Virus record (IMG/VR): IMGVR_UViG_3300046003_004989
Span: 64,001 to 128,000 of that record
DNA: 64,000 nt
Strand: one strand, 5' to 3'
Source: a virus
Part shown: in pieces, positions 1,571-62,466 of the stretch
Layout of the letters: each line of letters begins with the position of its first letter
Numbering within the stretch: the first letter of the stretch is position 1
Translations under genes and position numbers: made by a program
The notes under the pieces: model-generated
Database searches by the model: none
Told to the model about the DNA's origin: nothing
What the model saw: the letters and a program-made list of their open reading frames with translations, nothing else

Positions 1571-1631
1571 TACAAATATAATCAATTTTTTTGAATAAGT
1601 AAACTGATTTGATAAAAACTTATTAACAATT
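1571..1631 (-). promoter_or_regulatory. Early promoter cassette 1 (TATATTTG -7 element plus upstream TTGTTAATAA box)
   Basis: TATATTTG matches the Bacteroidota TAnnTTTG consensus; box is 39 bp upstream. Confidence 0.75.
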
Positions 1632-2018
1632 TTAGATCAGCTTCGTAGAGAAACGATTTTTCATTCTTTCTAAAGCTTCGGTAGGAACACCATGAACGTT
1701 AGTAGAACCATGACGGTTTTCAACAATAACAGTTGAGATTCGGTAGCCATAATCTTCTGCTAATTCGAAATATGTTTCCATTTCCCAATCTGTAGTGAAT
1801 GTGTTTGCAACTCCAATAGTTTCAACTTCATCTACCATTGCTTGTTCGACTTGTTCTTTACACCATTTATGTGCTTGTGGTAATTTTGTTGCATCAAAAT
1901 CATATCCACCGTTTTGTTCGAAGAACATATCTGCTGAAAATGTTGATTTGCAAAGTGTCTCGGATAAGGACGATTTTCCAGAACCTGGTAAGCCTCTAAA
2001 TAAGATTATGTTTTTCAT
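1632..2018 (-). CDS. P-loop kinase (AAA_33 / polynucleotide kinase-like)
   Basis: Walker A GLPGSGKS; AHKWC, NTF and HGVP motifs. Confidence 0.85.
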   Translation of the reverse strand: MKNIILFRGLPGSGKSSLSETLCKSTFSADMFFEQNGGYDFDATKLPQAHKWCKEQVEQAMVDEVETIGVANTFTTDWEMETYFELAEDYGYRISTVIVENRHGSTNVHGVPTEALERMKNRFSTKLI

Positions 2019-2057
2019 AAGTCAAATATAAAACAAATTATTGAAAGAAAAAAATTT

Positions 2058-2387
2058 TTATGCAAAAAAGTGATGAAATAAATGTGCAGCTCCCCAGACG
2101 ATTAAGAATGATGTAGCATACATAACAAGTTTTAACCAACCGCTATAATCACCTTCTGCTTCTTTCTTAGGTAATTTAGACGAGAAGATTCCCCAAACGA
2201 TCGTCAATCCATATAATTGTATGAATGTTAATTCTTTCAAATGTGGAATATTGAATAAATTAGATAGATCTCCAATGATGTAAGCTTCTAAAGCACTAAT
2301 ACCAAAAATCATTGAGAATAAAATTACAATTCCAATTGAAATTGCGATGAAACCACCAAAGGCTTCTGCTGTTTTGTCTGTAGACAT
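2058..2387 (-). CDS. Small membrane protein
   Basis: Three hydrophobic segments in 109 aa. Confidence 0.7.
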   Translation of the reverse strand: MSTDKTAEAFGGFIAISIGIVILFSMIFGISALEAYIIGDLSNLFNIPHLKELTFIQLYGLTIVWGIFSSKLPKKEAEGDYSGWLKLVMYATSFLIVWGAAHLFHHFFA

Positions 2388-2389
2388 AT

Positions 2390-2587
2390 TTACGAGTTTA
2401 AAGGTTTTACTGTGATTGAATTTGAACCAAATCTTTCTTTTACCATTTGAATTGCCATTTTAACTTTAGGTGAATCTTGTACGATATAAGACGTAAGAGT
2501 ATTCGAATAAAAAGGAATATTGTTTGCTTTAAGATCTTTAAGAAAAGATTTGGAAGCTGTAAAAGTTAATGTGATGATTTGTTCCAT
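2390..2587 (-). CDS. Hypothetical protein
   Basis: ATG directly downstream of early promoter cassette 2. Confidence 0.65.
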   Translation of the reverse strand: MEQIITLTFTASKSFLKDLKANNIPFYSNTLTSYIVQDSPKVKMAIQMVKERFGSNSITVKPLNS

Positions 2588-2604
2588 TTGTTTTAATTTT
2601 ATAG

Positions 2605-2665
2605 TACAAATATAAACAAAAAACCCAACACTGAAAAATGCTGGGTTAAAAAGTTATTAACAATT
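2605..2665 (-). promoter_or_regulatory. Early promoter cassette 2 with embedded terminator-like hairpin
   Basis: TATATTTGTA plus TTGTTAATAAC box 39 bp upstream; AACCCAGCA...TGTTGGGTT-TTTT hairpin between them. Confidence 0.75.
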
Positions 2666-3296
2666 AATCGATGAATTCATCGAATTCTCCATTCTTTCGT
2701 TTAGATTCGAGAATCTTCCAAGTTTCATAAGCGTTTCTTCTTATTGTTTCGGTTCTTTCTCTTTCAGCAATTTCAGCAATTTTGATATTCTCTTCTAAAA
2801 TACCTTTAGCTCTTTCAACCATTGCTTGATATTTTGGATGGGCTTTAATCATATCGATTACTTCTTCTCCTTCAAGTACTACATCATTACTGATCCAATA
2901 TTCAGTTCGAAGATATTCGTCTGCTTCGTTAGTAGCTCCTTTAGTCATAACGACTTTTTCCTTCTTGACAATTTGAAATTTCATATTAGGATTGATAAAG
3001 CCTCGATTAGCAATTCCATCGTTTTCGAATTCTTTTTGATCTTCCATCCAATTGGTAACTGCATCTTGATCGTGTAAAAATTGTTCAATTAGAGAATCGA
3101 CATCTTCTCGATGTCTCTTAAATTGCCAATTAAGAGGAGTTTTCCCGAAATTAAAAGACATATATGGAGTAACCATTTCATACATGGTTTCGATCGGAAC
3201 CGAAAGGATTCCATCTTCAATTGTATAATTTTTGACTAAATCGGTAGCTTTACTTAAAGTTCGATAGTCCATTGTGTTTTCAAATACGTTGTACAT
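2664..3296 (-). CDS. Hypothetical protein
   Basis: 210-aa ORF tightly packed in the operon. Confidence 0.7.
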   Translation of the reverse strand: MYNVFENTMDYRTLSKATDLVKNYTIEDGILSVPIETMYEMVTPYMSFNFGKTPLNWQFKRHREDVDSLIEQFLHDQDAVTNWMEDQKEFENDGIANRGFINPNMKFQIVKKEKVVMTKGATNEADEYLRTEYWISNDVVLEGEEVIDMIKAHPKYQAMVERAKGILEENIKIAEIAERERTETIRRNAYETWKILESKRKNGEFDEFID

Positions 3297-3297
3297 G

Positions 3298-3804
3298 TTA
3301 TTGTTTATTAGATTCTATAAGTTCTTTGAAGAAGTCGAATTCGATCGGAGCGTTATTCCAATTTGAAACATTGGCATTGAATCGATAACCATCTTCTAAA
3401 TTAGTAGATTGAGTTCCTCCATGAACATGGATATAATCTTCTTCTTTACCGATCCAATCTAATAGAGGCCAATGAGATATAATGCAATTGATATTTGGTA
3501 TGATTGCTATCTGATGGCTTATAATCGAATGTCTTCCTAATTTAATGAGAGACATTTCTGGTAAATGAGAATCATATTGCCCTGACAAGAAATTGATTTT
3601 TCCATTTAGATGAATCATTGAGCTTTCACATGCAATTGGATCCCATGCAAAATTTCCTAAATGATAAACTATATCATTCTTACCGACTCTCTTATTCCAA
3701 TTTTCTATGTATGTATCGAACATCTCTTCATCTGAAGAGAATCCTCTTTCAATAGCCGTTAATTTACGACCGAAAAATGTGTCACTTGTAAAGAATATCT
3801 TCAT
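3298..3804 (-). CDS. Calcineurin-like metallophosphoesterase fold, degenerate active site
   Basis: Motif order matches phage phosphoesterases (FTSDxxFG, NWNxxV, YHLG, SHWP, HVHG) but several metal ligands are substituted. Confidence 0.75.
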   Translation of the reverse strand: MKIFFTSDTFFGRKLTAIERGFSSDEEMFDTYIENWNKRVGKNDIVYHLGNFAWDPIACESSMIHLNGKINFLSGQYDSHLPEMSLIKLGRHSIISHQIAIIPNINCIISHWPLLDWIGKEEDYIHVHGGTQSTNLEDGYRFNANVSNWNNAPIEFDFFKELIESNKQ

Positions 3805-3980
3805 TCTACTTTTTTGGCTATTTCGTCATTAAAAATTACGTAGGTCGAACAACAAAACGAGCAAATCCATTGCTCGTCATGCCAAGGTTCATCGGCAGGA
3901 TTGTACTCTATTTCATCTCGTTTGCAATGCAAGCAAGACTGTACTTCGTATTTCTTTTCACCTACCTCTACTATCTTCAT
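3801..3980 (-). CDS. Small zinc-ribbon protein (59 aa; not in ORF track)
   Basis: Manual translation MKIVEVGEKKYEVQSCLHCKRDEIEYNPADEPWHDEQWICSFCCSTY...KVE*; two CxxC pairs; ATGA overlap with the next gene. Confidence 0.7.
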   Translation of the reverse strand: MKIVEVGEKKYEVQSCLHCKRDEIEYNPADEPWHDEQWICSFCCSTYVIFNDEIAKKVE

Positions 3981-3985
3981 TTACA

Positions 3986-4013
3986 TTATATGAAGATAGA
4001 GAGTAGATGTTTC
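3986..4013 (-). promoter_or_regulatory. Putative ECF-type (middle) promoter GAAAC-N16-CATATAA
   Basis: Same architecture recurs at 13959, 21042, 29303 and 61938. Confidence 0.5.
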
Positions 4014-4016
4014 AGT

Positions 4017-4775
4017 TTATTTCTTACGTTTTGCGATTTCTTCTGCTACTTCATCGAATACTTCTTCAATGATTTTAATGAGTGGATTTCTTACGATATC
4101 ATCTTCTGTGAATTGCATGATACCAAAGTCTTCTTTAGTAGAGAATTTTTCCATAATGATTGGAAGTGAGGAGATTTTAGTTCCTGTGAGGTCTTTCTGT
4201 TTTACGTCACCCAAGAATACTAGCTTACAATTAGAACCTAAACGAGTCATTATTGTATGCATATTATCAGGAGTAATGTTTTGACATTCGTCGATGAGTA
4301 CAATACAGTCATCAAAATTAATTCCACGTAAATAAGCAATTGGCATTACTTCAATTGACTTATTAGCTCTTAGGGATTGAGTAATAGATCTTCCTACGAT
4401 CTTCTCAAAATTATGAATGAATGAAAAAACGAAAGGTTCCATTTTCTCTTCTAGAGTTCCTTTAAGGAAACCTATCTCTTCATCTTTAAGTGTTGTAACA
4501 GATTTTACAATATATATGCGTTTATATTTTGCATCATCTTTGAAAAGTTTTAAAGCTTGAGCACAAGCTATATAGGTTTTTCCTGTACCTGCAGGTCCAG
4601 AACAAATAGTGACTTGTTTGTTCTCGATATGTTCAGCAAAAGTTTTTTGATTTTTGTTTTTGAACTTTAGCTCAATCTTTGTGTTTTTCAACGTATGATT
4701 GTGCGATTGGCTAACAATTGATTCGAGGATTTGTTGTTCTTCTTCCTCGGTGTACTTTTTGCGTCTACTACCCAT
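4017..4775 (-). CDS. phoH: PhoH-like ATPase
   Basis: GPAGTGKT, IGFLKG, YLRG, DECQN and GDVKQ motifs. Confidence 0.95.
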   Translation of the reverse strand: MGSRRKKYTEEEEQQILESIVSQSHNHTLKNTKIELKFKNKNQKTFAEHIENKQVTICSGPAGTGKTYIACAQALKLFKDDAKYKRIYIVKSVTTLKDEEIGFLKGTLEEKMEPFVFSFIHNFEKIVGRSITQSLRANKSIEVMPIAYLRGINFDDCIVLIDECQNITPDNMHTIMTRLGSNCKLVFLGDVKQKDLTGTKISSLPIIMEKFSTKEDFGIMQFTEDDIVRNPLIKIIEEVFDEVAEEIAKRKK

Positions 4776-4792
4776 GTGGATTTTTGTTTTTA

Positions 4793-7700
4793 TTAACTAC
4801 TAAACATTCCTTCGGATTTTGTTTTAATAGTTACAGAGGTTAATGCTTGAGTGAATGCTCTTTGTAGATCAGCTACTGATATTTGATTACCTTTAGCAGG
4901 TACTTGATTTGTAGGCGCATTGCCTTTTGGTGCTGGACCAGTTGCGGTAGGGGTTGCTGGAGCTGCTTGAGTTCCTGCAGTTTGAGCACCACCTCCACCA
5001 GCTCCATTTAATTCTTTTATAGCAGCTACGAGTTCCTCAAATGCGGATTTGATAGATTCATCTATTTGACTAGCGATTGCTTCAGGATTCTTAGCTAAGA
5101 TTGCTAAAGATTTCATCATAGAATCTGTCAATGTAAGTTTTTTCAAATCGAACGAATTAACGTGCTCTTTGAATAACTTCATCGATTTTTGAATCTTGTC
5201 AAAATTATCAGCTAATTTAGTCATTTGATCTGTAGTATCTGCCATTGTTTGTAGATTAGTAGCAAATGCCGAGAAGTAATAACTAATCTTAGGCATATTT
5301 GGATTGAGTTTTGGATCGAATGCATTATTTACTTGAGATAAGAATGCATTGATGGATTGTCCAGTTTTATCAACATCTTTTAATTTACCCCATGCTTCAA
5401 CTGGTTTAGCTGCATCAGCCAAAGCAGATGTCATATCAGGCAGAACATCTAAAGCAGAATCAACTGCTGATCGATTAGCTTCAACTAATCTTCCAGTGGA
5501 TGCAATTCCATGAACTAAAAGCGATAAGATAGTTTGAAGATTAAATGCAGCTTTCTTAAAGTCACTTGAGTTCATTTTTCTTGTTGAAACTGGAACTAAC
5601 TGACCTTTACTGTCAACCTTATATGTTGTGATTTCTGAATTTGCTAATTTAATAACTGCATCGGCAACTGATGATATATTTTGTCCTAGACCTTGAATCG
5701 CTTGAACACCTTTCTTAACATATCCATCCGAGAACCAACCTTCTGAATTGTCTTCCATTTCACCAATTTTAGCAATCTCTCTTGCAAGGAATCCTGTTAT
5801 CATTCCAATATTAACAGCTGCAGTAACGAAGTCTGTAGGATTCATTTTTCTAACAGATTTGATAACTAATTGTGGCTTACCGTCGATCATCTTAACTTCA
5901 TTTTCGACAAGTTCCATGTTTGCCATTTTCTGAATTACTTCAGCCATAGCAAGTAAGTTATCTCCAAGACCAGCAATAGATTCAACCCCTTTAGATACAA
6001 ATCCTCCTGAGAAGATACCAGAAGAATCTGATTCCATTTTACCGATTTTAGCTAATTCGTTAGCTAAGAAACCAGTTACCATTCCTATATTGAGAGATGC
6101 AGAAACAAAATCAGATGTAGACATTTTTCTAACTGATTTCGGAACGATCTTAGCATCTTTTGTACCAGCATTAACAACTTCATATTCGGTGATTTCCAAA
6201 TTAGCCCAAGCTTTAACTCCTTGAGCCAAATTAACGAGAGTATCACCTGAATTTTTAAGTGCATCAACACCTTCAGCAACTAAACCACCACCAAATATTG
6301 CATCGTATAGTGGATCTCCTGAAGATTTACCTCGATTAAGCATACCAACTTTTGCGAAAGGTGCAGCAATAGCTGAAATAACAAGTGCCATTCCGTTAGC
6401 TGCATTTTCAAAGTCAGACTTACCAAGTTTTCTCTTATTTTTAATTACAAGTTTTGCTTTTGCTGTTCCACCATTGATAACTTCCCATTCAGTTACTTCC
6501 AAATTAGCCCAAGCTTGAACACCTTCAGCTAATGAAGCAAGAACAGAACCAGCACCAGAAAGTGCTGCAACTCCAAGCATAAAGTCGAACCAATTAACAT
6601 TGATTCCCATTTTCTTTTGAGCTTCTTTATCTGTGATTATAGAGAATGCTCTAACAATTCCACCAATAGCATATTGTAGATTATCACTATCTCCTTGATT
6701 GAATCCAATTTTCTTAAATATTGCTAGACCAGCAGAAATTGATATTAGAGCAAGACCTGCAAGAATCATAGGTCCTACTGTGATAAGAAGTAAAGCGGCT
6801 CTAGCTGCTGCGGCTGCAGCAAATTTAAGTCCTTCAATAATTCCTCCTGGCATATCACCTCCAAGGAAACCAGAAACTACAGATCCTAAAGCATTCTTTA
6901 AACTCTCACCATCTTCATTCTTCCAACCGATAGCTTTAAATACTGCTAATCCACCAGAAAGAAGGAGAAGTGAGATACCTGCAACCATCATTGCGGCTGA
7001 ACCAGCAATAATAAATGGTGAAGCAAGACCTGCAAGACCCATTACAATACCTAATCCACCAATAGTTGCACCTAAAACTAGTGCATCATCCATTGTGAAT
7101 TTAGCTGCTTTGAATAGGACAAGACCTACAGAAATAAGAATTAATGAGATTGCAGCGATTGTCATACCAATAGCACCTTGAATAATTACTGAACCGAATG
7201 CTCCAGCAAGAGCCATTGCTACTGCCAATCCACCAACAGTAAGACCTAGAATGAGAGCATCATCCATTGTCATATTAGCTGCTTTATAGACCATTAAACC
7301 TACTCCTAAAAGAATAAGAGAGAATGAAACTATAAGAAGTGCTATAGCACCTTTAGCAATATCTTTCCAGAATTGACCTATAAAATAGAATACTGCTGCA
7401 AATCCAGCAATTGTAATAATTGCATATAGAGAATCTTGTGGAGTTACCATCATTGAAAATAGAACAATAGATAGACCGAACAAGATAATACCAAGTGAAG
7501 TATAGAGAAGTGATTTTACTCCATGTCTAACAGTGTCTGTTCCCATAACATAAAGTGCTATAGAAAGACCTAACATAGAAAGTGTAACTGCTAATGTACC
7601 CATAAGAATCATAGGTGCCATCATAGAAACGACTACCATCGTTAAAGCGTATAAAATTACACCTAATGCAATTTTAAGAGGAACTTTAGCTCTTGCTTCT

Positions 7701-8431: not shown

Positions 8432-8440
8432 TTATTTAGA

Positions 8441-9942: not shown

Positions 9943-9958
9943 AGATCGAATTTTATTG

Positions 9959-9966
9959 TATATATC
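9959..9966 (-). promoter_or_regulatory. Late promoter GATATATA
   Basis: Motif recurs upstream of about 12 structural genes. Confidence 0.65.
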
Positions 9967-10080
9967 TCAGATCTATGATAAAATAATCAAGTAACAATAT
10001 ATTATTTTATTCAAAAAGACAAACCAATAGAGGCCATCTGAGGAACTTTGGGTAGTTGTATTGATGAACTAATATAACAC

Positions 10081-10117: not shown

Positions 10118-10161
10118 GCATCAAATTAAAACTATATGATAATGGAATTTCTTCCGTTTGT

Positions 10162-11544
10162 TTATTTAGCTATTTTCTTACGTAGCTCTTTCAAATCTGA
10201 TTGATACCAATCCGTTGGAATAATTGCTTGAACTCGTTTAGTTTCAGCTTCATTTTCACCGATTTGTTTAAGTAGCTCTTCATATTTTTCTTTCGTTAAA
10301 GAGTGAATAGCCATACTTAAAAGGTAGTCGTAAGAATCTTCTGTCTTATCGAATTTTGCTTTCTCTAAATCTGTGATGATATCTGCTTTTGGTCGATTGT
10401 TAACTTTCAATTTTCCATCAATAATCATCTTAATGAACTTAGCTCGATTTGACATCTTGCTATTTTGTTCTTCTAATTGATTAACTAAATAGCTTTTACG
10501 CTTATCGTAGAAGGTTAAACGGAATTTAACAAAATGATTGATTAACTCAGTAACGGATTTGAAGATAATCAGCTTACCGTTTTCGTCAAGACATGTAATA
10601 TTTTCTGTTTCATTTTCAACTAATTTCAAAGTGCTTTCTAAATTGTCTTTAGCAATTCGATTTGCTAATTCTTGTCTAGAGAATTTGATTGTATAGCTAA
10701 TATCAGTTTTTGTAGAATTGTCATCGTAATATGAGATGATGTTTTTCTCTTGCAACCAATTCAAATGAGCTTCATATTTTTGATATGTCATAGACGGTGG
10801 CAATTCAGTAACTTTTACGGTTGTAGTGTTTTGAACTTCATATCTTCCTTTGATTTGAAATGAACTTGTTGCTACATCAGATTTTGTAACTATTCCATTG
10901 AAACCATTCCACCAAGGAAGTGGCTCTTGGAATTTTTTTCCTTCTAATGATTTGAGAGATGCATCGATTAAGTCAACTGCATTTCGATTCAAGATGTTTG
11001 TCGAGAAACCTACAGCGATACCAGAAGAACCGTTAAGCAGAACTGCTGGAATAATCGGTAAGAAGAATGTTGGTTCAATTTCATAACCTTCTTCGTATTG
11101 AGATTCGAGTAACTCGAAGTCTTTATAAAGTAGTCGGAAATTACCATTCAATTTAGTTGATATGTATCGAGCAGCACCTGGTTCTGGAGAACGAAGTGAA
11201 CCGAATTGACCGATACCGTCAAGAAGTGGCATCGAATTCTTAAATGTTTGAGCCATACCGATGATAGCTGAATTCAGTGAAGTATCACCGTGATGATATT
11301 GTGCATCGGATGCAATTTTACCACCGAATTGAAATACTTTAAGTGGTTTGTCATTTCCACCTTTCCAAACTCTATTGGCTACAAAAATAATCTTTCTTTG
11401 TGTTGGTTTGAATCCGTCAATTGCAGAAGGGATAGCTCGATTTTCAATAGTGTACATACCATAGGCTGCATACTCGTTATCAAGATATTCTGTTATTGTT
11501 CTTTGTGGAACTTCGTTCTTAGTAGATTGTGATATCTTCGACAT
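10162..11544 (-). CDS. gp52: Type II DNA topoisomerase, medium subunit (gp52 / GyrA-like)
   Basis: DGFKPTQRK, YHHGD, catalytic GAARY and NGSSGIAVG motifs. Confidence 0.95.
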   Translation of the reverse strand: MSKISQSTKNEVPQRTITEYLDNEYAAYGMYTIENRAIPSAIDGFKPTQRKIIFVANRVWKGGNDKPLKVFQFGGKIASDAQYHHGDTSLNSAIIGMAQTFKNSMPLLDGIGQFGSLRSPEPGAARYISTKLNGNFRLLYKDFELLESQYEEGYEIEPTFFLPIIPAVLLNGSSGIAVGFSTNILNRNAVDLIDASLKSLEGKKFQEPLPWWNGFNGIVTKSDVATSSFQIKGRYEVQNTTTVKVTELPPSMTYQKYEAHLNWLQEKNIISYYDDNSTKTDISYTIKFSRQELANRIAKDNLESTLKLVENETENITCLDENGKLIIFKSVTELINHFVKFRLTFYDKRKSYLVNQLEEQNSKMSNRAKFIKMIIDGKLKVNNRPKADIITDLEKAKFDKTEDSYDYLLSMAIHSLTKEKYEELLKQIGENEAETKRVQAIIPTDWYQSDLKELRKKIAK

Positions 11545-11863: not shown

Positions 11864-12015
11864 TATTTAGCGTATTGTAAGTTTAACAATTTGTCTGCTT
11901 TTTTAAGCTCTTTCTTAGCCGATTTGATGTTTCCTGCGAGGGTAAGTTTTAGAGCTTTAATCATTGCTATTCTAGCAGGTGTAGTTTCTTTAGATGATTG
12001 AGATTGCTTACTCAT
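11863..12015 (-). CDS. Small basic protein (50 aa; not in ORF track)
   Basis: Manual translation MSKQSQSSKETTPARIAMIKALKLTLAGNIKSAKKELKKADKLLNLQYAK*; follows early promoter cassette 3; TAATG coupling to the next ORF. Confidence 0.65.
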   Translation of the reverse strand: MSKQSQSSKETTPARIAMIKALKLTLAGNIKSAKKELKKADKLLNLQYAK

Positions 12016-12036
12016 ATTGATGTTTTAATTGTGATA

Positions 12037-12097
12037 TACAAATATAAAACAAAAGTTTCAAATTAAAAAATTTTTATTCAAAAAGTTATTAACAATT
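12037..12097 (-). promoter_or_regulatory. Early promoter cassette 3
   Basis: TATATTTGTATATC plus TTGTTAATAACTTTT box 39 bp upstream. Confidence 0.75.
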
Positions 12098-13987: not shown

Positions 13988-14341
13988 TTAAGAGACTTTA
14001 GTAATGCTAAGGTAACCGTTATAACCTTTACATTTACCTGTACTACAAGTTACATAGTGCATTGCATATGTTTCAGTAGCTTCTTTAAGTGTTTTTCGTT
14101 CGTCCGAAACAGCCCATTCATCTACTAATGTGATAAATGCAGAAACATTTTTACCAGTAGAGTAGTTATGTTGTTTTCTGTATTGTTTATCACCATACAT
14201 AGTGAAAAGCATTTTTGCTAGTTTCCAATTTGAATCGTTTTTACGAACCGGAACACCGAAGTCGCAAGCATCGTCATAGATTTGAATTGATTCAGATTGA
14301 ATTTGATTTAATGCGTGGTAACCTTCTCTGTAAATTGCCAT
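13988..14341 (-). CDS. Hypothetical protein
   Basis: Start moved to ATG 14341 (MAIYREG), downstream of early promoter cassette 4. Confidence 0.65.
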   Translation of the reverse strand: MAIYREGYHALNQIQSESIQIYDDACDFGVPVRKNDSNWKLAKMLFTMYGDKQYRKQHNYSTGKNVSAFITLVDEWAVSDERKTLKEATETYAMHYVTCSTGKCKGYNGYLSITKVS

Positions 14342-14363
14342 ATTGTAATTGATTAATTTGATA

Positions 14364-14424
14364 TACAAATATAAAACAATTATTTGTAAATAAAAAATAA
14401 AGTTTCAAAAAGTTATTAACAATT
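14364..14424 (-). promoter_or_regulatory. Early promoter cassette 4
   Basis: TATATTTGTATATCAAATTAATC plus box 39 bp upstream. Confidence 0.75.
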
Positions 14425-29472: not shown

Positions 29473-29770
29473 TGTTCGTTGGAGTTGAAGTTATTGTTTG
29501 AACGTTTTTCGGAGTATAGTAGAATTGTAGATTTGAATCCATTGTTACGAAGTCTTCTGGAAACATATTAAAGTCGTAAAGATTATTTTTGTTGTTTTCT
29601 ACTAACTTATTGAAGTATCTTAAGTACATAAAACCGTAACGATGTTGAGGAATACAAAATACAAAAACACATAGAGCATTTTTATGAGAACCTTTAGTAA
29701 CTTTTACAATGTCACCTAATTCGATTTGATTGTTGTTTTGATCAGTAAAATGTAATGGATTGAATTGCAT
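29444..29770 (-). CDS. Hypothetical protein (KOW-like N-terminus)
   Basis: IELGDIVKVTKG; follows early promoter cassette 5. Confidence 0.6.
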   Translation of the reverse strand: MQFNPLHFTDQNNNQIELGDIVKVTKGSHKNALCVFVFCIPQHRYGFMYLRYFNKLVENNKNNLYDFNMFPEDFVTMDSNLQFYYTPKNVQTITSTPTNNGKTKIKLR

Positions 29771-29793
29771 AATTGAATTGTTTTAATTTGATA

Positions 29794-29863
29794 TACAAAT
29801 ATAATACAAAAACTCGACATTAAAAAATGCCGAGTCAATTATTTTCAAAAAGTTATTAACAAT
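29794..29863 (-). promoter_or_regulatory. Early promoter cassette 5 with embedded terminator-like hairpin
   Basis: TATATTTGTATATC plus box 49 bp upstream; ACTCGGCAT...ATGTCGAGT-TTTT hairpin. Confidence 0.75.
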
Positions 29864-32061: not shown

Positions 32062-32262
32062 TTATTCGATACAAGTTAGGATAGCAAAAATTAAGGTTAA
32101 GACACTTGCCATCATGAAGAATCCTATTTCGTTAAGAGTTCCAGCAAAGTGAATGTGACTCTGTAAGTCACCAGTAAGAGTAGTGTAGGTTATGATAGCA
32201 CATAAGAATGTTGCTAATAAATAACCGAATCTTTTGATTGATTTTGTTGTTTGAATTGTCAT
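32062..32262 (-). CDS. Small two-TM membrane protein
   Basis: Two hydrophobic helices; first gene after early promoter cassette 6. Confidence 0.65.
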   Translation of the reverse strand: MTIQTTKSIKRFGYLLATFLCAIITYTTLTGDLQSHIHFAGTLNEIGFFMMASVLTLIFAILTCIE

Positions 32263-32288
32263 AGTTTTACCTTTTGATTAATTTGATA

Positions 32289-32348
32289 TACAAATATAAT
32301 ACATTTTTTTGAAATAAAAAAATTTTTACAAAAAAGTTATTAACAATT
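32289..32348 (-). promoter_or_regulatory. Early promoter cassette 6
   Basis: TATATTTGTATATCAAATTAATC plus box 38 bp upstream. Confidence 0.75.
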
Positions 32349-39908: not shown

Positions 39909-41813
39909 TTAGTAGCCTCTACCGAAACGTTTTTTAAGACCTGCATGAACAGCTTCCATATAAGCGTCTGGAGTTTGATATGCTGCTGTTTCATTAATAG
40001 GAGCAGAAGCATTTTCATTGATAGGTGCATCTAATTTAGAAGGACGTAAATCTCTTGTAGACCAGAAGTTATCAACTGCATATTGATTATCTAAAACTTT
40101 CACAGAAGCTTGAGCTTTGATAGCATTCTTTTGTGATTCGTTAAGACCATTCCAAGATTCTTTGTATTTAGCTGGCATATTAGTCAACCAATTGAAAGAT
40201 GGAGCAGCAATAATAAATGCTGATTCATAAAGTCTTTCAGCATCTACTGAACCATAGAATTTATTGTTTTCAAAGATAGTGATTACTTCGTCTTTCTTTT
40301 CAGGTGTTAAAGAAGCAAATTGATTTCTTTTAGTTTCAGTTAAGAAGTTTAAGAAATGTAATTTGTTAGAGTTATTAGCTTCATTTACTGCTTTAGCTGA
40401 TTCTAAAATAGAATTCAATTTATCAGTAAGATTTTTCTCATAATTATCAGAACCTGCATCAATAGTAACATCGATTGCGGCTGGAGTAGCAGTAGGTTCA
40501 GAACCTTCATTTACTGGTTCAGCATTTGCATCAATAACAACTTTACCTTCATTGATTTCTTTAACGATGTGATTTAAGTAACCGCTTAAGTTTTCTGTTT
40601 GTTCTTTCAAATATTCAGTGTATTCAATGATAGATGATGTACCTTCAACGATATAATCGTTATGAGAAATTACGTTATCTAATTGTTCATTGATATGATT
40701 TTGATAAGACCAACGGTTATTAGATTCGTTAGCTACATATTTAGTGAATTCAATACCTTGATCAGCTTTTTCAGCTACAACTTTAGTATATTCAATTCCT
40801 TCATCAGCTTTCTTAGCTACAACTTTAGTGTATTCGATTAAGTGGTCAACTGATTCAGCAAGTTTTTCTGAATAGTTAATTCCTTGATTAGATCTTTCAC
40901 CAACAAGTTCAGCGTAATTTTTAACTTTCTCTAGGTTTTCGATGATGTAGTCATTATGTGAAATAAGACCATCAACAGACTCAGCAAGTTTTCCAATGTA
41001 TTCTTGAATTTGGTTAACTCTTTTAGCTGTTTCTTCAGTGTACTTAACAAGTCCTTCATTTACAGAAGTATTGTTATTTGCATTTTGGGATTCAGTTAAA
41101 GCTTTTTTAAGATTGTCAACCTCATTTTTTACATGTTTTGAGTACTCATTAAAGTCTTCAACTGTAATGTATTTTTTAGAATCCATTTCGTTGATTTTTG
41201 TTTCTTTGTTTGATTCAGTATATTTATCTTCTTCCGTAGATTTGATAGTAGACTCATCCAATGTGAAGTCAGTTTCATAGATAGAAATTAGGCTATCTTC
41301 ACCGAAACCGAAAGATTCATTTACTCTTTTTAATTCAGCATTAGCAAATCCGGGATCTGCTACTAAATCGTAAGTAAACATTTTTTTGATCTTAACATGT
41401 CCATTAGATTCAACAACACCTGCTGCTCTAGATGAAATATGAAGTGGAACTCCAGCATCAACTAATGCCATAGCTTGTTTACCTGCATCTGTATTAAGAA
41501 GTCTAATACGACCAGTTACTTTTTTAGATTTTGGATCGTATGAAAGGTCCTCAATGATATGAGAAGCATTTTTTAGGGAGATGTCAAAAGACTTAGGATG
41601 GTCAAGTTCACCAAGAAGTTTATTACCTTGCAATTTAGCTTGGAGTTCTTGGATGTGAGGCATTAACTCTTTTTCGTCGTAGATTCTATTGTTTTTGTTT
41701 CTAACGCCGATTTCAGTAAATGTACCTTCTAGCACATACTTATCTCCGTCTTTAGAAGATTGAAGATTCCCTTCGGATCTTTCTAATACGAGTAGATATT
41801 TGTTATTGCTCAT
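39909..41813 (-). CDS. gp21: Prohead protease (gp21-like) fused to scaffold/core (gp22-like)
   Basis: NKNNRIY, GELDHP, ISSRAAG and YDLVADPGF protease motifs followed by about 450 aa of coiled coil with repeats. Confidence 0.88.
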   Translation of the reverse strand: MSNNKYLLVLERSEGNLQSSKDGDKYVLEGTFTEIGVRNKNNRIYDEKELMPHIQELQAKLQGNKLLGELDHPKSFDISLKNASHIIEDLSYDPKSKKVTGRIRLLNTDAGKQAMALVDAGVPLHISSRAAGVVESNGHVKIKKMFTYDLVADPGFANAELKRVNESFGFGEDSLISIYETDFTLDESTIKSTEEDKYTESNKETKINEMDSKKYITVEDFNEYSKHVKNEVDNLKKALTESQNANNNTSVNEGLVKYTEETAKRVNQIQEYIGKLAESVDGLISHNDYIIENLEKVKNYAELVGERSNQGINYSEKLAESVDHLIEYTKVVAKKADEGIEYTKVVAEKADQGIEFTKYVANESNNRWSYQNHINEQLDNVISHNDYIVEGTSSIIEYTEYLKEQTENLSGYLNHIVKEINEGKVVIDANAEPVNEGSEPTATPAAIDVTIDAGSDNYEKNLTDKLNSILESAKAVNEANNSNKLHFLNFLTETKRNQFASLTPEKKDEVITIFENNKFYGSVDAERLYESAFIIAAPSFNWLTNMPAKYKESWNGLNESQKNAIKAQASVKVLDNQYAVDNFWSTRDLRPSKLDAPINENASAPINETAAYQTPDAYMEAVHAGLKKRFGRGY

Positions 41814-52378: not shown

Positions 52379-52414
52379 TGATCGCTAATTTGTTTAGTTA
52401 TATATCATCACTAA

Positions 52415-55179: not shown

Positions 55180-55180
55180 A

Positions 55181-55654: not shown

Positions 55655-55658
55655 GTCT

Positions 55659-56957: not shown

Positions 56958-56967
56958 GTTTATTTTT

Positions 56968-57309
56968 TTATATGAGTTCTTTACTATTTAGTATTTCGTA
57001 GTATGTGGTAAAACGTGTATTTTTAACTACTTTGATTGTGTCAGAAGCGAGAAGAGATTCGAGAAGACTTTTAGTCGTCTTCTCGTCTCCGTTTAATTTC
57101 TCTTTAAGAACAACGTCAGTAAAACAAGTATTGCCGGTTTCATCAACCGCTCGATATTCATGAATGAAGTGCTTACCACCTTCATTATAGAACCAATTCG
57201 ACATCAAATAGACGAAGTCTTCAGTTGTCGGATATCCTGGTTCATCTCTAAATGAGCCTATCAAATACTTGATTTTGATATTGTTGTTATTCATCTTCGT
57301 CATTTCCAA
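56968..57309 (-). CDS. Hypothetical protein
   Basis: 113-aa ORF between UvsX and the helicase. Confidence 0.6.
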   Translation of the reverse strand: MEMTKMNNNNIKIKYLIGSFRDEPGYPTTEDFVYLMSNWFYNEGGKHFIHEYRAVDETGNTCFTDVVLKEKLNGDEKTTKSLLESLLASDTIKVVKNTRFTTYYEILNSKELI

Positions 57310-58474
57310 TTAAGAATTGTTCAACTTCTTCGGCTTCATTAGCATCGATACCATAGCTGAACTTCGCTTTAATTTTCTTATCGTTGATTTGTGAAAGAAC
57401 ATCATGATTGAATACTTCAGCAGTGAATAATTCATAAGGAGAAACTCCTCTGCCTAAGTGTTTTACGATGAAGTTACGAGCTGTTTCTTTCCCAACGAAA
57501 TATTTAGTCTCACCTTCAACTTGGAATGGATGAGCACTTGCTTGATCTTTCTCAGATAGCTTATCATAATCTTTCTGATTAATGATATTACCTTTTTGAA
57601 TTCCACAAGTTTCCCAATCGATGTATTCTTCCATACCGATGTAAGGATTCATACCTCTGTCCCAACGAATATGGAACTTGATTGGAATAGGTTTACCGAA
57701 ACGATTTTTCAAAGTCTTAACCGAGACAATGATACCTGTTTGAACTGTACCTTCTTTAATTTGAGCTTTTGAAAGAGCTAGAATTACAGAAGCAGAATAA
57801 ACAAGACCTCCACCACCTGAAAGGTTAATCGTCGGGAACATACCAGTAGATGCGTATGTGTGATTGGTGAATAGGAATGGTATTCCAAGACCTGTTAAAT
57901 CGGAAGTGATAATACGGAATAGTGAACGAACCATTTTAGCACGAGTCATATCGGCTGCTGTGTTTCCACTTTGTGCATCATCAATTTCTTTCGTAGTTGC
58001 AAGCATCCCTAATGAATCTAAACAGATTGCAATTTTAGGAGTTTTGAAACCTTTCTCTTTAGCTTCCATCATTCTCTTACAAAGAGTTGTAATAGATGTA
58101 CGGAATCTAGCAAGGTCAGACATCGGTTGATGATCGAAACGATCTGGATCAACACCAAAGTTTTGAATGTTATCCACGTCTACAGCACCTTCTGTATCAT
58201 AATAGATGACATAATAACCTTTAGCTTGTAATTCTCGACACATATTTAGCATCAAGAAAGTCTTTCCTGTACCTGATTCACCTGCTAAACAGATAGTACG
58301 GTTGTTTGGAATACCACCAAATAGATCTCCAGAGAATACCGCATTTAAGTGATAGTTACCTGTGTCAATCCACTCGGTGATTTTTGAGAAGTCATTTTTA
58401 CTAATGACATCTCCAAAAGGGTTGATTTTCTTTAACTCCTTTTGTAGTTCTAGGATTGAATACTCTTTACTCAT
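57287..58474 (-). CDS. uvsX: RecA-like recombinase (UvsX)
   Basis: AGESGTGKT, YDTE, DSLG, DMTRAK, NHTY, SGGGG and KNR motifs. Confidence 0.95.
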   Translation of the reverse strand: MSKEYSILELQKELKKINPFGDVISKNDFSKITEWIDTGNYHLNAVFSGDLFGGIPNNRTICLAGESGTGKTFLMLNMCRELQAKGYYVIYYDTEGAVDVDNIQNFGVDPDRFDHQPMSDLARFRTSITTLCKRMMEAKEKGFKTPKIAICLDSLGMLATTKEIDDAQSGNTAADMTRAKMVRSLFRIITSDLTGLGIPFLFTNHTYASTGMFPTINLSGGGGLVYSASVILALSKAQIKEGTVQTGIIVSVKTLKNRFGKPIPIKFHIRWDRGMNPYIGMEEYIDWETCGIQKGNIINQKDYDKLSEKDQASAHPFQVEGETKYFVGKETARNFIVKHLGRGVSPYELFTAEVFNHDVLSQINDKKIKAKFSYGIDANEAEEVEQFLIGNDEDE

Positions 58475-58504
58475 TTTTACTTACTTTTTTTCTTTAGTTG
58501 TTAT

Positions 58505-59701
58505 TTAGAATAGTCCACCAACCGTATAAGCGAGAGAAGGATGCAAAGGTGGCAAGCCTGCTGGTACGATAATTCGGTTAAGAGGATCTAAAATTGTTTT
58601 TTGGAATTGAACTTCGAGATTCATTTTTGGTGCAAATTCAATTGGATAATTTCCAGCTTTATAAGCGAAAACATCACAAAATTGATCAGATGAATGATAC
58701 CATTTTACTTTGTCACCACCACGAATAAGTTCATATTTACCTTTCAATCTATCTTCTTGATTAAGTAGATAGTTATGATAACCACCTGCTCGAACATGGA
58801 TAGGTGTTCCTGATTTCAATTCTAATCTATCTTGGTCATTTAAGATAAATTTATTGTATTCAGATATACCACGAGTCATCGAGATTTTTTCGATATTGGA
58901 AAGCTTGAATTCAGTTTTGATTTCTTTAATTAGCTTAACCAAATCTTGATTGTCTTTTGATGTGATTTTTGTTTTCGAAAAGATGTACTTTACGGCATCA
59001 ATTAACTTTTGTCTACAGAAAGGTGGTGTAGACGATTGGATAATTTCTAGTCCTGTAGTTTTGATGTATGTTAGATTGTCATAATCTTTACCATCTTTCC
59101 AAATGATATTTTGAATGTATTTCTTTTTAGCTACCCAAATAGCATTCTCTGCAATTGTTTCTAACTCGAAATCTAAGTGATTATCTGTGTGTCTAGATTC
59201 TGCATAATCATCAAGTACTTTCTTAATATAAGCAGCTAAACGATTTGCATTTAGAGTTAAAACGAATTCCTTTACAGTTCCTTGCCAATTAACAGCTTCC
59301 ATTACTTCTTCAAAAATTAAGTAACCTGAATCAGTATCGGTATATTTCCATACTTGACCTTTGATAGGACGAACTTCCCAATCTGGTTTAACGAGTAATT
59401 TTTCATGAAGAGCTTTGTCTTTATGAAAGAATTCTTTGAAATATCGATCAACCATTTTTTCGGTGAATCGGATTGCATCTTGTCCTTGTAAAGTTACAGT
59501 TTCAGCGATTGCAATGTTATAGAAGTGAAAATACTCATTGGCGAAGGCACCATAAATTGAGTTAATGATTAATTTGATTGCTTGCTCTGAAGAATAACAT
59601 CTCAAAGATTCGGTCTTTAATGCATCAATATCTTCTGGTGATAGAGTAGAAAAGTCTAATTCGTTAATTTTTTCTACTGTTAGAGAGCTTGTATTAATCA
59701 T
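58505..59701 (-). CDS. Family B DNA polymerase, C-terminal half (split gp43)
   Basis: Region III KLIINSIYG, region I YTDTDS, KKKY and GLEII; lacks the exonuclease domain and region II DxxSLYP. Confidence 0.9.
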   Translation of the reverse strand: MINTSSLTVEKINELDFSTLSPEDIDALKTESLRCYSSEQAIKLIINSIYGAFANEYFHFYNIAIAETVTLQGQDAIRFTEKMVDRYFKEFFHKDKALHEKLLVKPDWEVRPIKGQVWKYTDTDSGYLIFEEVMEAVNWQGTVKEFVLTLNANRLAAYIKKVLDDYAESRHTDNHLDFELETIAENAIWVAKKKYIQNIIWKDGKDYDNLTYIKTTGLEIIQSSTPPFCRQKLIDAVKYIFSKTKITSKDNQDLVKLIKEIKTEFKLSNIEKISMTRGISEYNKFILNDQDRLELKSGTPIHVRAGGYHNYLLNQEDRLKGKYELIRGGDKVKWYHSSDQFCDVFAYKAGNYPIEFAPKMNLEVQFQKTILDPLNRIIVPAGLPPLHPSLAYTVGGLF

Positions 59702-59870
59702 GTTTTTCTATTTTATGAGCTTCTAATAATTCTTCGATTGTATCATAAGTCTCTAGAGTTTTCATCTTTGATCTATCGTTTAGATAGAGACCTTGTTCTG
59801 ATCTTTCGAAAGCATTCCAAGTCTTATCGTATTCATTAAAATGAATGTATTTACTATAGAGTTTGTACAT
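59694..59870 (-). CDS. Small protein (58 aa; not in ORF track)
   Basis: Manual translation MYKLYSKYIHFNEYDKTWNAFERSEQ...KIEKHD*; fills the gap between the clamp and polymerase genes. Confidence 0.6.
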   Translation of the reverse strand: MYKLYSKYIHFNEYDKTWNAFERSEQGLYLNDRSKMKTLETYDTIEELLEAHKIEKHD

Positions 59871-59871
59871 A

Positions 59872-60618
59872 TTATTCGGTGATTGCTAAATTTAAAGCGA
59901 TTGATGTATTTGATTCTTCGGAAACAAGGATCATTTTGTTTTCACAAACAGAAACGTTATAAGTTTCTTTGTCTACTCTTTGTAAGAAAGATTTGAAGAT
60001 AGAAGTTGCTGCATGTGTTTCTTTTTTATTATCGTCAATTACGATATCGAAAGATTCAGAACTAACATGAACACCTGCAGTATCAGAATAAATTTTGAAT
60101 AATTCGCTTTTGTCTAAAGTTTGTAGAGAAGTTACTTTAGCGAAGTCTTCAGATGACAATTTAAAGTCATAAAGTTTTGTAGTTACATCGAATGCTCTGC
60201 TTACTTGTTCAGATGTCATTGATGTGAAACCTAAAGAGATGTCTTGACAGTGCAATTCAATTTTCAATTGATTGTCTTTAAATACGATTTTTTCGGCATA
60301 AAGGATGCCATCGTCTTCATCTTTAAATACGTTGATTTCCGCTGATAAATTATGCGGATCAAAATAACCTAAACAAGAAAGCAACCTTTGTCCTGAAAAG
60401 AACGATAACTTAATTGTTTCTGTTTGTGGTTTTTCAAACTGTAATACGTCGTTTACAGGAAGTGAAACTGATTTAACTACGTCTTTTGTTGGAGTATAAA
60501 CATCCGACCAAATACGTTCACCGTCTACGTTTAGATAGACAGAAGTGTCCATAAGTAACATTCTTTTAATCAGAGAAGTTAAATACGGTACTGATACTTT
60601 CTTTACTTGAATTTTCAT
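59872..60618 (-). CDS. Probable sliding clamp (gp45-like)
   Basis: 248 aa, two-domain alternating beta/alpha pattern, upstream of the polymerase; assignment from context. Confidence 0.55.
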   Translation of the reverse strand: MKIQVKKVSVPYLTSLIKRMLLMDTSVYLNVDGERIWSDVYTPTKDVVKSVSLPVNDVLQFEKPQTETIKLSFFSGQRLLSCLGYFDPHNLSAEINVFKDEDDGILYAEKIVFKDNQLKIELHCQDISLGFTSMTSEQVSRAFDVTTKLYDFKLSSEDFAKVTSLQTLDKSELFKIYSDTAGVHVSSESFDIVIDDNKKETHAATSIFKSFLQRVDKETYNVSVCENKMILVSEESNTSIALNLAITE

Positions 60619-60657
60619 TTGCTTGATTTAGTTTTGATTATTATATGTGATTTTTGG

Positions 60658-60906
60658 CTATTTGGATACCGATTCAACAAACGTATAGCCTTCATTTAGA
60701 TAGCTATCTAACCAAGTCTGCATGTTGCTTTCACAAATACAGCTTTCATGTTTATATTCCGGTTTTTTCTTATTGGTATGTCGGACAGTAATAAACCATC
60801 CATCGTCTGCCATTCCGAGATCTTCTACGAAGATAATTTCTCTACGGCCTTTCTTTATATGATGCAGGATTTTACCGTCTACCTGCTGATAGTCATTATA
60901 CTTCAT
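60658..60906 (-). CDS. Hypothetical protein
   Basis: 82-aa ORF in operon. Confidence 0.6.
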   Translation of the reverse strand: MKYNDYQQVDGKILHHIKKGRREIIFVEDLGMADDGWFITVRHTNKKKPEYKHESCICESNMQTWLDSYLNEGYTFVESVSK

Positions 60907-61135
60907 AGTGATTTAATGATTTTACGAAACCTTCGTTAGTTGCTAATCTCATGAAATATCGATAGCTTTCAGGAGTTCCTTCTATTTGAAATGTATAATA
61001 GCCATCAGGATCATCAAATTCTGATAGGACTCTGACTGCATATTTCCAATCGCCTATTTCGTTTAGATGTTCTACATGTCTTTCAAATTCTTCACGTTCT
61101 TCAGGCAAAATGCCTAGATAGTACTCAAATTTCAT
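60896..61135 (-). CDS. Hypothetical protein
   Basis: 79-aa overlapping ORF. Confidence 0.6.
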   Translation of the reverse strand: MKFEYYLGILPEEREEFERHVEHLNEIGDWKYAVRVLSEFDDPDGYYTFQIEGTPESYRYFMRLATNEGFVKSLNHYEV

Positions 61136-61571
61136 TTTTTTCTTGATTTAATTCTGTGATGTAATGTACAAGAGCAAGCCAAACAGCTTCTTTAGTGGAT
61201 TTGGAATTAGATGCATTATAATTGCAAACTACTGCTTTATCAGCAGGCCAATTATGATTTATCATATGAGAGATTTCACATCTTCTTCCACAAATTTCTA
61301 TGAAAGGACTATGAGGGTCTTGTTCAATTTTATCAATAACTGACATCAGTTCATTCCAATCGGAATCATACTTAAAAATACCTATTCGAGCATATTCGTC
61401 TCTAGAATGAGAATAGCTATCGAATTCCCAATGTTCAATAGTTCCTGTTGAATGTGAACCATGTGGCATTTCGTACTCTTCAGTACGAACAATTCTTCCG
61501 CCCATGAACTTAGCGAGAATTTTATTGCCTTCTGTTTTATTAATCTTCGTCATAATGATCTCTCCCTTCAC
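61125..61571 (-). CDS. Hypothetical phage protein
   Basis: NKILAKFMG...YDSDWNELMSVIDKIE...AV pattern typical of phage proteins. Confidence 0.65.
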   Translation of the reverse strand: MKGEIIMTKINKTEGNKILAKFMGGRIVRTEEYEMPHGSHSTGTIEHWEFDSYSHSRDEYARIGIFKYDSDWNELMSVIDKIEQDPHSPFIEICGRRCEISHMINHNWPADKAVVCNYNASNSKSTKEAVWLALVHYITELNQEKNEI

Positions 61572-61932
61572 CTGATTTTAAACGTAGATATTCATCATCT
61601 GAATGATCGTCTTCTTCGATTTCAAAACCTTCTTCATCGAATTCATATTCACAACAAGGCCATCTTCTACCTCTACTGTCGATATTAGCCCATGAAGTTT
61701 TTTCTTCATTAGTCCATATCCAATCAACTCCTTCTTTACCATCTTCTTCGTCAGGACTAATTCCTCCTGGCGGATGATAATGTTCAGCAACTACTGAGTA
61801 TTCGTTACATGAACAACCTCGATGAACGCATTCATCACAGAAATAAGGACTGCATCCACTTGAATAACCTGGCATGTATATCCAAGTTGCTTTTTGACCA
61901 CAGTCACATTTTTCGAATTGTTTATCTTCCAT
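61540..61932 (-). CDS. Cys-rich hypothetical protein
   Basis: CDCG...CDEC..RGCSC...PCCEY. Confidence 0.65.
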   Translation of the reverse strand: MEDKQFEKCDCGQKATWIYMPGYSSGCSPYFCDECVHRGCSCNEYSVVAEHYHPPGGISPDEEDGKEGVDWIWTNEEKTSWANIDSRGRRWPCCEYEFDEEGFEIEEDDHSDDEYLRLKSGEGRDHYDED

Positions 61933-61952
61933 AGTCTTTTTATGTCTAAAAC

Positions 61953-61981
61953 AAAAGCGAGATTCAATTAAGAATCTCGCT
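61953..61981 (-). terminator. Terminator
   Basis: AGCGAGATTC...GAATCTCGCT stem plus T run. Confidence 0.75.
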
Positions 61982-62003
61982 AGAGTTGAGTTTCGGGTAT
62001 TGA

Positions 62004-62360
62004 TTATTTGACGAAACTTCCGTATTCGTCGATTAAGTTTAGTGAATCAAGTAAAGCGTAACCTTCATTTGTAATTTTAATTGTACCGAAGTTTAAACCG
62101 TCTCTTGACCAATATTTGTTTAGGATTTTATTACCGTCTTTGTCTTTGATAAATTTCTTTTCACCTTCTTGAATATTTACTAGACCTTTTTGAACTAGTG
62201 AAGAGAAAACACCTGAACGAGTTTTACCAGTGAAAGGGCAACAATCATAAACTGAAAAGTCCCAAAGAATTGAATCTCTTCCGTTTTCATAAAAATCTGA
62301 ATGAGTTATCGCTTTTAAACCTTGTAACTCTAAGTCTGTTAAATTTACTGAATTTGTCAT
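62004..62360 (-). CDS. Winged-helix-like hypothetical protein
   Basis: LTDLE...SGVFSSLVQKGLV...ITNEG; first gene after early promoter cassette 7. Confidence 0.6.
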   Translation of the reverse strand: MTNSVNLTDLELQGLKAITHSDFYENGRDSILWDFSVYDCCPFTGKTRSGVFSSLVQKGLVNIQEGEKKFIKDKDGNKILNKYWSRDGLNFGTIKITNEGYALLDSLNLIDEYGSFVK

Positions 62361-62386
62361 ATTGTTTTAATTTGATTAATTTGATA

Positions 62387-62466
62387 TACAAATATAAAAC
62401 AATAAGTTGATAAAAAAAAATTTCTATCAACTTATTTTCAAAAAAGTTTCAAAAGTTATTAACAAT
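62387..62466 (-). promoter_or_regulatory. Early promoter cassette 7 with 12-bp inverted repeat
   Basis: TATATTTGTATATCAAATTAATC plus box 59 bp upstream; AATAAGTTGATA...TATCAACTTATT. Confidence 0.75.

Follow-up and report, generated by a model that had tools for sequence, protein, structure and literature searches.

A helically phased upstream box common to probable pre-late phage promoters and ribonucleotide reductase promoters of Bacteroidota: a putative DnaA site

DnaA activates or represses nrdAB through boxes in the promoter, regulates ribonucleotide reductase (RNR) and replisome genes in other bacteria, and stimulates transcription in phage lambda by contacting RNA polymerase (RpoB) (PMC8203912). 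In the present study we describe a 15-base box, TTGTTAATAACTTTT, which stands upstream of repeated promoter cassettes in a 64-kb stretch of viral DNA (hereafter the window; bases 64001-128000 of the 144,480 bp viral contig IMGVR_UViG_3300046003_004989) and which may well be a site for host DnaA. It resembles the DnaA-regulated promoters of E. coli nrdAB and dnaA and of the RNR genes of B. subtilis and Caulobacter (PMC8203912) in that boxes lie upstream of an RNR promoter and mark a regulon for deoxynucleoside triphosphate (dNTP) supply and replication, and canonical DnaA boxes are interchangeable with it in host slots. Activation of lambda pR/ori-lambda by DnaA (PMC8203912) is in addition a precedent for a phage using host DnaA for its own transcription. 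The box differs from the sites of DnaA-regulated promoters in consisting of TTATTAACA with a CTTTT flank rather than TTWTNCACA, in keeping strictly to a 10-bp grid that runs from 39 to 69 nt before a Bacteroidota -7 element, where binding is predicted here, and in being found both in many unrelated Bacteroidota phages and, ~15 times in 144 kb, at the early-type promoters of a lytic phage of the T4-like kind.

At class I activator promoters CRP is found at -61.5, -71.5, -82.5 and -92.5, and the present arrangement is similar in having a single upstream site, in one orientation and at whole helical turns, with the polymerase-nearest site forming the commonest class, whereas its core promoter is of the Bacteroidota -33/-7 type. 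Cyanophage promoters carrying host Pho boxes or NtcA sites are alike in that many promoters of a lytic phage have acquired a copy of a host operator, although the operator is a different one and the host gene set here concerns dNTPs and replication, with no phosphate genes behind the box among the host sites listed. T4 middle promoters, in which a MotA box works with AsiA, share with our cassettes a T4-like phage, a box added to a host-type -10/-7 element and a position ahead of a late sigma cascade; the MotA box, however, depends on phage proteins and stands at a fixed -30 in place of the -35 element, whereas the present box is more distant upstream, its position varies by whole turns, and host chromosomes carry it too. 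The PeSL cassettes of T4-like myoviruses (PMC2839356, PMC4122927) are likewise repeated intergenic units with an A/T-rich part, a stem-loop, an early promoter and a translation start beside small ORFans (orphan open reading frames, ORFs), but the upstream part here is a sequence-specific box common to host promoters, and the stem-loop is optional (three of seven in the window) and placed between the box and the -7 element with its loop over the -33 region. Full-text literature searches for the box sequence together with Bacteroid* found no report and retrieved unrelated papers only, and published Bacteroidota transcription-start maps would have missed it because they searched only from -50 to +1.

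A first-pass annotation of the window had described seven promoter cassettes with a conserved upstream box, and all seven were found at the gaps it gave, the plus-strand intervals from TACAAATATA to TTATTAACA being 39, 39, 39, 39, 49, 38 and 59 nt (Table 1). The TACAAATATA element occurs seven times in the window, on the plus strand only, against an expectation of 0.34 and a maximum of 2 in shuffled sequences, and three extra copies of TTATTAACA stand outside any cassette. Read along the coding (minus) strand, each unit begins with the stop codon of the upstream gene and continues with [A/T]TTGTTAATAA[C/G]TTTT, a spacer, TATATTTGTA, a conserved A-rich leader and the ATG, with one copy of the box per cassette in a fixed orientation. 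The -7 element is of the Bacteroidota sigma-A type, as annotated (PMC7366714, PMC9723704), and the annotation was also right that the canonical TTTG at -33 is not consistent, this region being a T-run (TTTT or TTTA). The contig as a whole carries 15 boxed cassettes, with 49/50 nt (nine), 59/60 nt (five) or 70 nt (one) from the start of the box to the start of the -7 element, together with four unboxed TATATTTG promoters. The sequence TGTTAATAAC is found 15 times on the coding strand of the contig and never on the opposite strand, with 0-1 occurrences in a backwards control. The near-palindrome GTTA-T-TAAC (9 bp) to which activator binding had been ascribed is probably incidental, as the core, TTGTTAATAACT, is asymmetric and always runs in one direction.

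The fixed distances might in principle reflect nothing but descent, with a box that has no trans-acting role and cassettes that are PeSL-like mobile promoter-terminator modules whose spacings were inherited by copying from a small number of ancestors. In this contig an extra spacer, TGAAAATAAT, is common to all five 60-nt cassettes, and the 70-nt cassette resembles a 10-bp duplication, so that those spacers alone amount to just two or three independent events, and terminator-like hairpins occur in about half of the cassettes, as in PeSLs (PMC4122927). Yet the nine 49/50-nt cassettes have spacers that are unrelated in sequence and identical in length, and the quantization persists after clustering and recurs in unrelated phages and host promoters (see below), so we consider descent alone extremely improbable as an explanation. 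Nor is the spacing explained by the hairpin, which is optional: strong stem-loops with a T-run are found in three of the seven window cassettes (2605, 29794 and 62387; z -5.1 to -5.6) and in none of the other four. Where present, the hairpin places its T-run loop over the -33 region and its T-tail against the -7 box, giving a compact terminator-promoter module.

The genome-wide motif scan that the first-pass annotation had proposed for the spacing bore out its ~10-bp grid not only in the 15 cassettes of the contig but also in IMG/VR and in host promoters. We searched IMG/VR with an exact pattern, namely the box, 25-55 nt of any sequence and TATATTTG, and obtained at least 113 loci on many contigs. 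Among the 117 matches listed, the distances were 40, 47-51, 57-61 and 69-70 nt, with none at 41-46, 52-56 or 62-68 nt, i.e. all 18 in-between positions permitted by the pattern were empty. When the matches were reduced to 25 groups by single-linkage clustering the gaps were still empty, and the Rayleigh test gave R = 0.76 (p ~6e-7) for a period of 10-10.25 bp. Sites with one to three mismatches in the same loci, which lie outside the selection imposed by the exact search, follow the same grid and vary only in the last three T's; the core is essentially invariant in 123 sites among the loci listed, 23 of them outside that selection. The spacers between box and -7 element in these loci are highly diverse in sequence, some with a hairpin and some without, and it is therefore their length that is the conserved property. 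A protein shared with the present phage was found in 37 of the 113 viral loci listed, and the other boxed loci have different portal and terminase families, with an integrase on one contig; given these differences and the few shared proteins, unrelated phages use the box. These data clearly show a site upstream of the -33 region that is restricted to integral helical turns, as at class I activator promoters, and the earlier proposal of helical phasing, with a protein on the same face of the DNA as RNA polymerase, is the best reading of them.

We then searched prokaryote genomes, one per species, for the box combined with the generic -7 element TAnnTTTG, and obtained at least 120 loci. The chromosomal matches listed are almost all from Bacteroidota (Bacteroidales, Flavobacteriales, Paludibacter, Muribaculaceae and Prevotellaceae), and their distances to TAnnTTTG peak at 48-52 nt with side peaks at 40-42, 59-63 and 69-70 nt over a low background, the TGT of the box starting 39, 48-49, 58-59 or 68-69 nt ahead of the -7 box. 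Anaerobic and aerobic ribonucleotide reductases (NrdD, NrdA and NrdB) account for 15 of the 121 host sites listed, which also precede genes for thymidine kinase (four), the DNA polymerase III alpha subunit DnaE (two) and MraZ/RsmH at the head of the division cluster (six), as well as thioredoxin, MurC, an HU-CCDC81 protein and an acyltransferase, identities that were confirmed with Pfam; phosphate genes were absent from these sites. This gene set is strikingly coherent and corresponds to what DnaA regulons usually contain (RNR, replisome and division genes; PMC8203912).

The chromosomal sites bear directly on the idea that a phage-encoded or injected activator, analogous to T4 MotA, binds the box. 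Many large phages do carry their own promoter-specificity factors, and an injected cargo protein had been named beside host DnaA as a candidate, but the same box and grid precede chromosomal housekeeping genes across Bacteroidota orders, both recur in phage lineages without any detectable protein in common with this phage, and the box lies upstream of the -33 region and not in its place. Because the same geometry is found in bacterial chromosomes and in unrelated phage lineages, an injected or phage-private activator is very unlikely. A middle promoter of the T4 MotA type was rejected as an identity for the cassettes, as the box takes several whole-turn positions between 39 and 69 nt upstream and bacterial chromosomes have it as well.

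Near-matches to the box number seven in each of two Flavobacterium genomes, below the backwards control, and because of this rarity the box is not a general promoter element. In one of these, genome G001, both TTATTAACA (58 compared with 139 in backwards controls) and TTATCCACA (28 compared with 45) are under-represented. These counts weigh on a further alternative, that the box is an upstream (UP) element or a stretch of intrinsically curved A/T-tract DNA contacted by the alpha C-terminal domains of RNA polymerase with no separate factor. Together with the TGAAAA that follows, the box of the 50-nt class covers about -61 to -41 and is similar to the E. coli UP consensus, AAAWWTWTTTTNNAAAA, and displaced UP elements are known to function only when moved by whole helical turns. 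In the 123 sites, nevertheless, the G and C positions of the box are invariant, unlike those of degenerate UP elements, the box is confined to a specific gene set besides being rare in hosts, and DnaA boxes that contain G and C replace it. A general UP element was rejected on the scarcity of the box in the two Flavobacterium genomes and on its invariant G/C positions, and we give very little credence to any factor-free explanation of this kind.

One connection with DnaA comes from the promoters of host RNR genes. The 25 nrdB promoters that we collected (L425-L449) come from an even sample of genomes of the class to which one host genome belongs (Flavobacteriia-class), and 19 of them have two boxes exactly 20 bp apart. 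In 17 of these 19 the proximal box starts 39 nt, and the distal one 59 nt, before the -7 element, and a single promoter has both boxes one full turn further out, at 49/69 nt. The distal box (box 1) reads TGTTNAWAA, whereas the proximal box (box 2) varies: 9-10 genomes have TGTTAAT there, five have a perfect DnaA box (TGTGGATAA, TGTGAATAA or TGTGAAAAA) and one has the near-consensus TGTGAATTA. All 19 have AAnnTTTG rather than TAnnTTTG at -7, plus a well-conserved TTGAC at -33, which we read as a conserved, weakened core promoter. For nrdD, orthologues were sampled at the phylum and order levels and gave few loci, two of which were informative: the slot occupied by TTGTTAATAAC in one species holds TTGTGGAAAACTTTTT in another, 51 nt from the -7 element, the DnaA box at this slot being TTGTGGAAAAC. 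Upstream of a class II RNR gene in another genome, TTGTGGATAACTTTT is followed by TGTGGATAA-a-TGTGCAAAA-t-TGTGGAAAA, i.e. three tandem perfect DnaA boxes at 10-bp steps. The same exchange is seen in a 53-kb phage contig (L329; IMGVR_UViG_3300042197_000954), which has 9-10 cassettes with TTGTGGA(T/A)AACTTTT at 49/50 nt from TATATTTG, including tandem perfect DnaA boxes, TGTGGATAAC-TTGTGGAAAACTTTTTT, 59 and 49 nt before TATATTTG. Taken together, these alignments indicate that the box is interchangeable with canonical DnaA boxes at the same position of orthologous promoters.

In the light of these comparisons, we propose that the cassettes are pre-late phage promoters read by host sigma-A RNA polymerase and that TTGTTAATAACTTTT is a host-type cis element whose likeliest binder is host DnaA acting as a class-I-like activator, a reading to which we assign a probability of roughly 0.55. 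Host DnaA, the other candidate of the first-pass annotation, thus gains from the canonical boxes in the same slot of host nrd promoters and of L329 and from the DnaA-type regulon. The reverse complement of the core, TTATTAACA, departs from the stringent DnaA consensus TT(A/T)TNCACA by a single mismatch, C6 to A. Outside Bacteroidota the matches listed include few hits to the box, and these fall in oriC-like clusters where TTATTAACA and canonical boxes occur side by side; ahead of a Clostridium dnaA gene, for example, 800 bp contain 11 boxes. The phage fragment itself was found to encode no DnaA C-terminal domain. In domain IV of five Bacteroidota DnaA proteins (L259-L263), compared with B. subtilis DnaA, SLPKIG becomes SLA(N/E)IG and DHTTV becomes (D/S/T)HATV in the DNA-reading region; we take these substitutions to correspond to the base-contacting residues P423 and T435 of E. 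coli DnaA, and they could underlie a shifted specificity.

Several observations weigh against the assignment to DnaA. The C6 of a DnaA box is normally invariant in work on E. coli, and the departure at this position is itself invariant in the 123 phage sites listed. Phages prefer TGTTAATAAC (at least 113 loci) to the canonical box (31), and in the present phage canonical DnaA boxes are neither enriched nor near promoters. A canonical box with the flank before a -7 element gave ten matches in 401 Bacteroidota genomes compared with six in the control, and no phasing; in IMG/VR the histogram of distances from a canonical box to TATATTTG is flat overall and informative only for L329 and a few other contigs. 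Clusters of TTATCCACA/TTATTAACA were absent beside dnaA in five genomes and absent genome-wide in one Flavobacterium, and the conserved CTTTT flank is not a feature of classical DnaA boxes. The phage preference fits a factor whose optimum is TGTTAATAAC, be it an altered DnaA or another protein that tolerates DnaA-like sequences.

The second of these options leads to an operator for a different host transcription factor of Bacteroidota, one with an NrdR-like role at dNTP and replication genes, whose resemblance to a DnaA box is incidental and which phages borrow in the same phased, activator-like geometry. Such a factor would suit a core and CTTTT flank that are together longer and more invariant than the DnaA 9-mer, the strong preference of phages for the box over canonical DnaA boxes, the lack of genome-wide phasing of the latter, and tandem direct repeats exactly 20 bp apart, an arrangement compatible with many regulators. 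The niche is also open, in that a search for NrdR (TIGR00244) gave no match in five of the Bacteroidota genomes with the box and none in the B. thetaiotaomicron control, against positive results in nine other control genomes. Set against this, perfect DnaA boxes, including the triple tandem array at 10-bp steps, fill the same slots at RNR genes and in L329, the same 9-mer lies amid canonical boxes in oriC-like regions outside Bacteroidota, and we know of no candidate protein. A separate host regulator is the main and a serious rival, which we hold to be less probable than DnaA. An NrdR box as such was rejected, both on the absence of NrdR from the genomes named and on the motif, the NrdR consensus being a 16-bp palindrome, acaCwAtATaTwGtgt, in tandem.

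If host DnaA is indeed the binder, the box would be a Bacteroidota variant of the DnaA box to which DnaA binds, and DnaA would touch RNA polymerase from one face of the helix in the style of a class I activator, compensating for the absent -33 contact. Both promoter designs would benefit from such an upstream contact, because the phage promoters combine a perfect -7 element with a T-run at -33 and the host nrdB promoters combine a good TTGAC at -33 with a weakened -7 element. The early genes of the phage, including that for its own sigma factor, would thereby be coupled to the host replication and dNTP regulon. Protein binding, the identity of the binder as DnaA, its activating effect and the early timing of the genes are here predictions from sequence, and the factor may activate, repress at high occupancy (as at E. 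coli nrdAB) or be titrated by phage DNA as it replicates. More tentatively, and at somewhat less than even odds, Bacteroidota DnaA would have a shifted or relaxed optimum, TTGTTAATAAC(TTTT), and would activate, from one face of the helix, a regulon for dNTPs, replication and division; by carrying the box on early promoters, many unrelated Bacteroidota phages would let their transcription, including that of the late sigma factor, read the initiation state of the host, and hundreds of replicated box copies may titrate DnaA and so block host initiation.

The box or its relatives also occur in other arrangements. Two unboxed TATATTTG promoters that lie outside the window, at 40872 and 35276 of the contig (-23128 and -28724 in window numbering), precede cargo-leader gene arrays and have a palindrome, TTTTCTGTTAA(T/G)CAGAAA, in which a box-like TGTTAAT lies 18 nt upstream of the -7 element, over the -33 region, which could be a repressing position for the same factor. 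Small contigs of another phage lineage (L019, L074, L053, L038, L017, L113 and L004) have TTAACAT 5 nt upstream of the box and GTTAAT repeats downstream at intervals of ~11 bp, an arrangement that suggests arrays of sites for the same factor. A viral contig (L405:158-211) has four TTGTGGATA(A/T)C boxes in ~60 bp, which may be a DnaA-dependent phage origin. In three Flavobacterium chromosomes (L138, L171 and L205), inverted boxes, TTGTTAATAACTTT ... AAAGTTATTAACA, stand on either side of the promoter and leader region of a conserved gene for a 2OG-Fe(II) oxygenase, with 40 nt between the upstream copy and the -7 element.

The genes behind the cassettes, in turn, bear on when these promoters are used. 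The phage sigma-70-family factor, whose transcription is predicted to start from cassette 1, has regions 2 and 4 and is ECF-like (extracytoplasmic function), and it differs from T4 gp55 in that region 4 is present; homologues of it adjoin box cassettes in 11 further IMG/VR loci. Small ORFans follow other cassettes, as does, beyond small ORFs, the gene for a gp52-like topoisomerase subunit. The virion genes (portal, protease and sheath) instead have a T4-late-like motif, GATATATAAT or CATATAA, also written (G/C)ATATATAAT, 13-46 nt before the start codon, which resembles the T4 late motif TATAAATA. Over the contig, 35 genes have the late-type motif, 18 have the sigma-A type (TATATTTG) and one has both, so the two are almost mutually exclusive. 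The phage sigma factor likely reads the late-type promoters (GATATATAAT), and the arrangement supports a putative cascade from host polymerase to phage sigma factor to late genes. It likewise supports calling the cassettes pre-late, with an early-type timing that we propose because one cassette would drive the phage sigma gene and the virion genes use a separate late-type motif.

Table 1. Positions in the window of the boxed cassettes and of associated features
Feature	Position	Strand	Box	-7 element	ATG	Distance, box to -7 (nt)	Remarks
Cassette 1	1549..1630	-	1630-1615 (ATTGTTAATAAGTTTT)	1580-1573 (TATATTTG)	1551	50	predicted to drive the phage sigma factor gene
Cassette 2	2585..2664	-	2664-2649	2614-2607	2587	50	hairpin 2647-2622, -13.5 kcal/mol, z -5.3, classed terminator-like; 65-aa ORFan downstream
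Cassette 3	12013..12096	-	12096-12081	12046-12039	12015	50	immediately after the topoisomerase II large-subunit gene; followed by small ORFs and the gp52-like topoisomerase subunit
Cassette 4	14339..14423	-	14423-14408	14373-14366	14341	50	no significant hairpin
Cassette 5	29768..29863	-	29863-29848	29803-29796	29770	60	10-nt extra spacer TGAAAATAAT; strong hairpin, -14.9 kcal/mol, z -5.6
Cassette 6	32260..32347	-	32347-32332	32298-32291	32262	49	no significant hairpin
Cassette 7	62358..62466	-	62466-62451	62396-62389	62360	70	duplicated CTTTTGAAA unit; strong hairpin, -16.3 kcal/mol, z -5.1
Unboxed promoter (internal comparison)	2016..2057	-		2030-2023 (TATATTTG)			same -7 type
Phage sigma-70-family factor	952..1551	-					198-200 aa
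gp52-like topoisomerase subunit	10162-11544						
Late-type motif, examples	38054, 41840, 43500, 18470, 51430	-					
Extra TTATTAACA copies	8127, 23443, 52065						outside any cassette

The contig from which the window was taken is ~53% complete by CheckV and has nearly all of its genes on the minus strand. It encodes a tail sheath, portal, prohead protease, major head protein, large terminase and T4-type topoisomerase II, and the nearest relative of the major head protein is from a 462-kb uncultured phage, with the Lak phages of Prevotella more distant. From this head-protein kinship and the T4-type gene set, we therefore regard the contig as a fragment of a large T4-related myovirus with a Bacteroidota-type host. 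Comparison of the window with the phage collection by megablast gave a single 117-bp match and nothing else.

How promoters are controlled in Bacteroidota and in their phages has been mapped only poorly. If the proposed assignment is true, it would give a testable nucleotide-supply and replication regulon for a phylum in which the genomes searched yielded no NrdR, and a possible case of altered DnaA-box specificity. It would also provide a general rule by which early promoters can be recognized in many uncultured Bacteroidota phages, huge ones included, and the box with its defined spacing could serve as a compact part for promoter engineering in Bacteroides and Flavobacterium.

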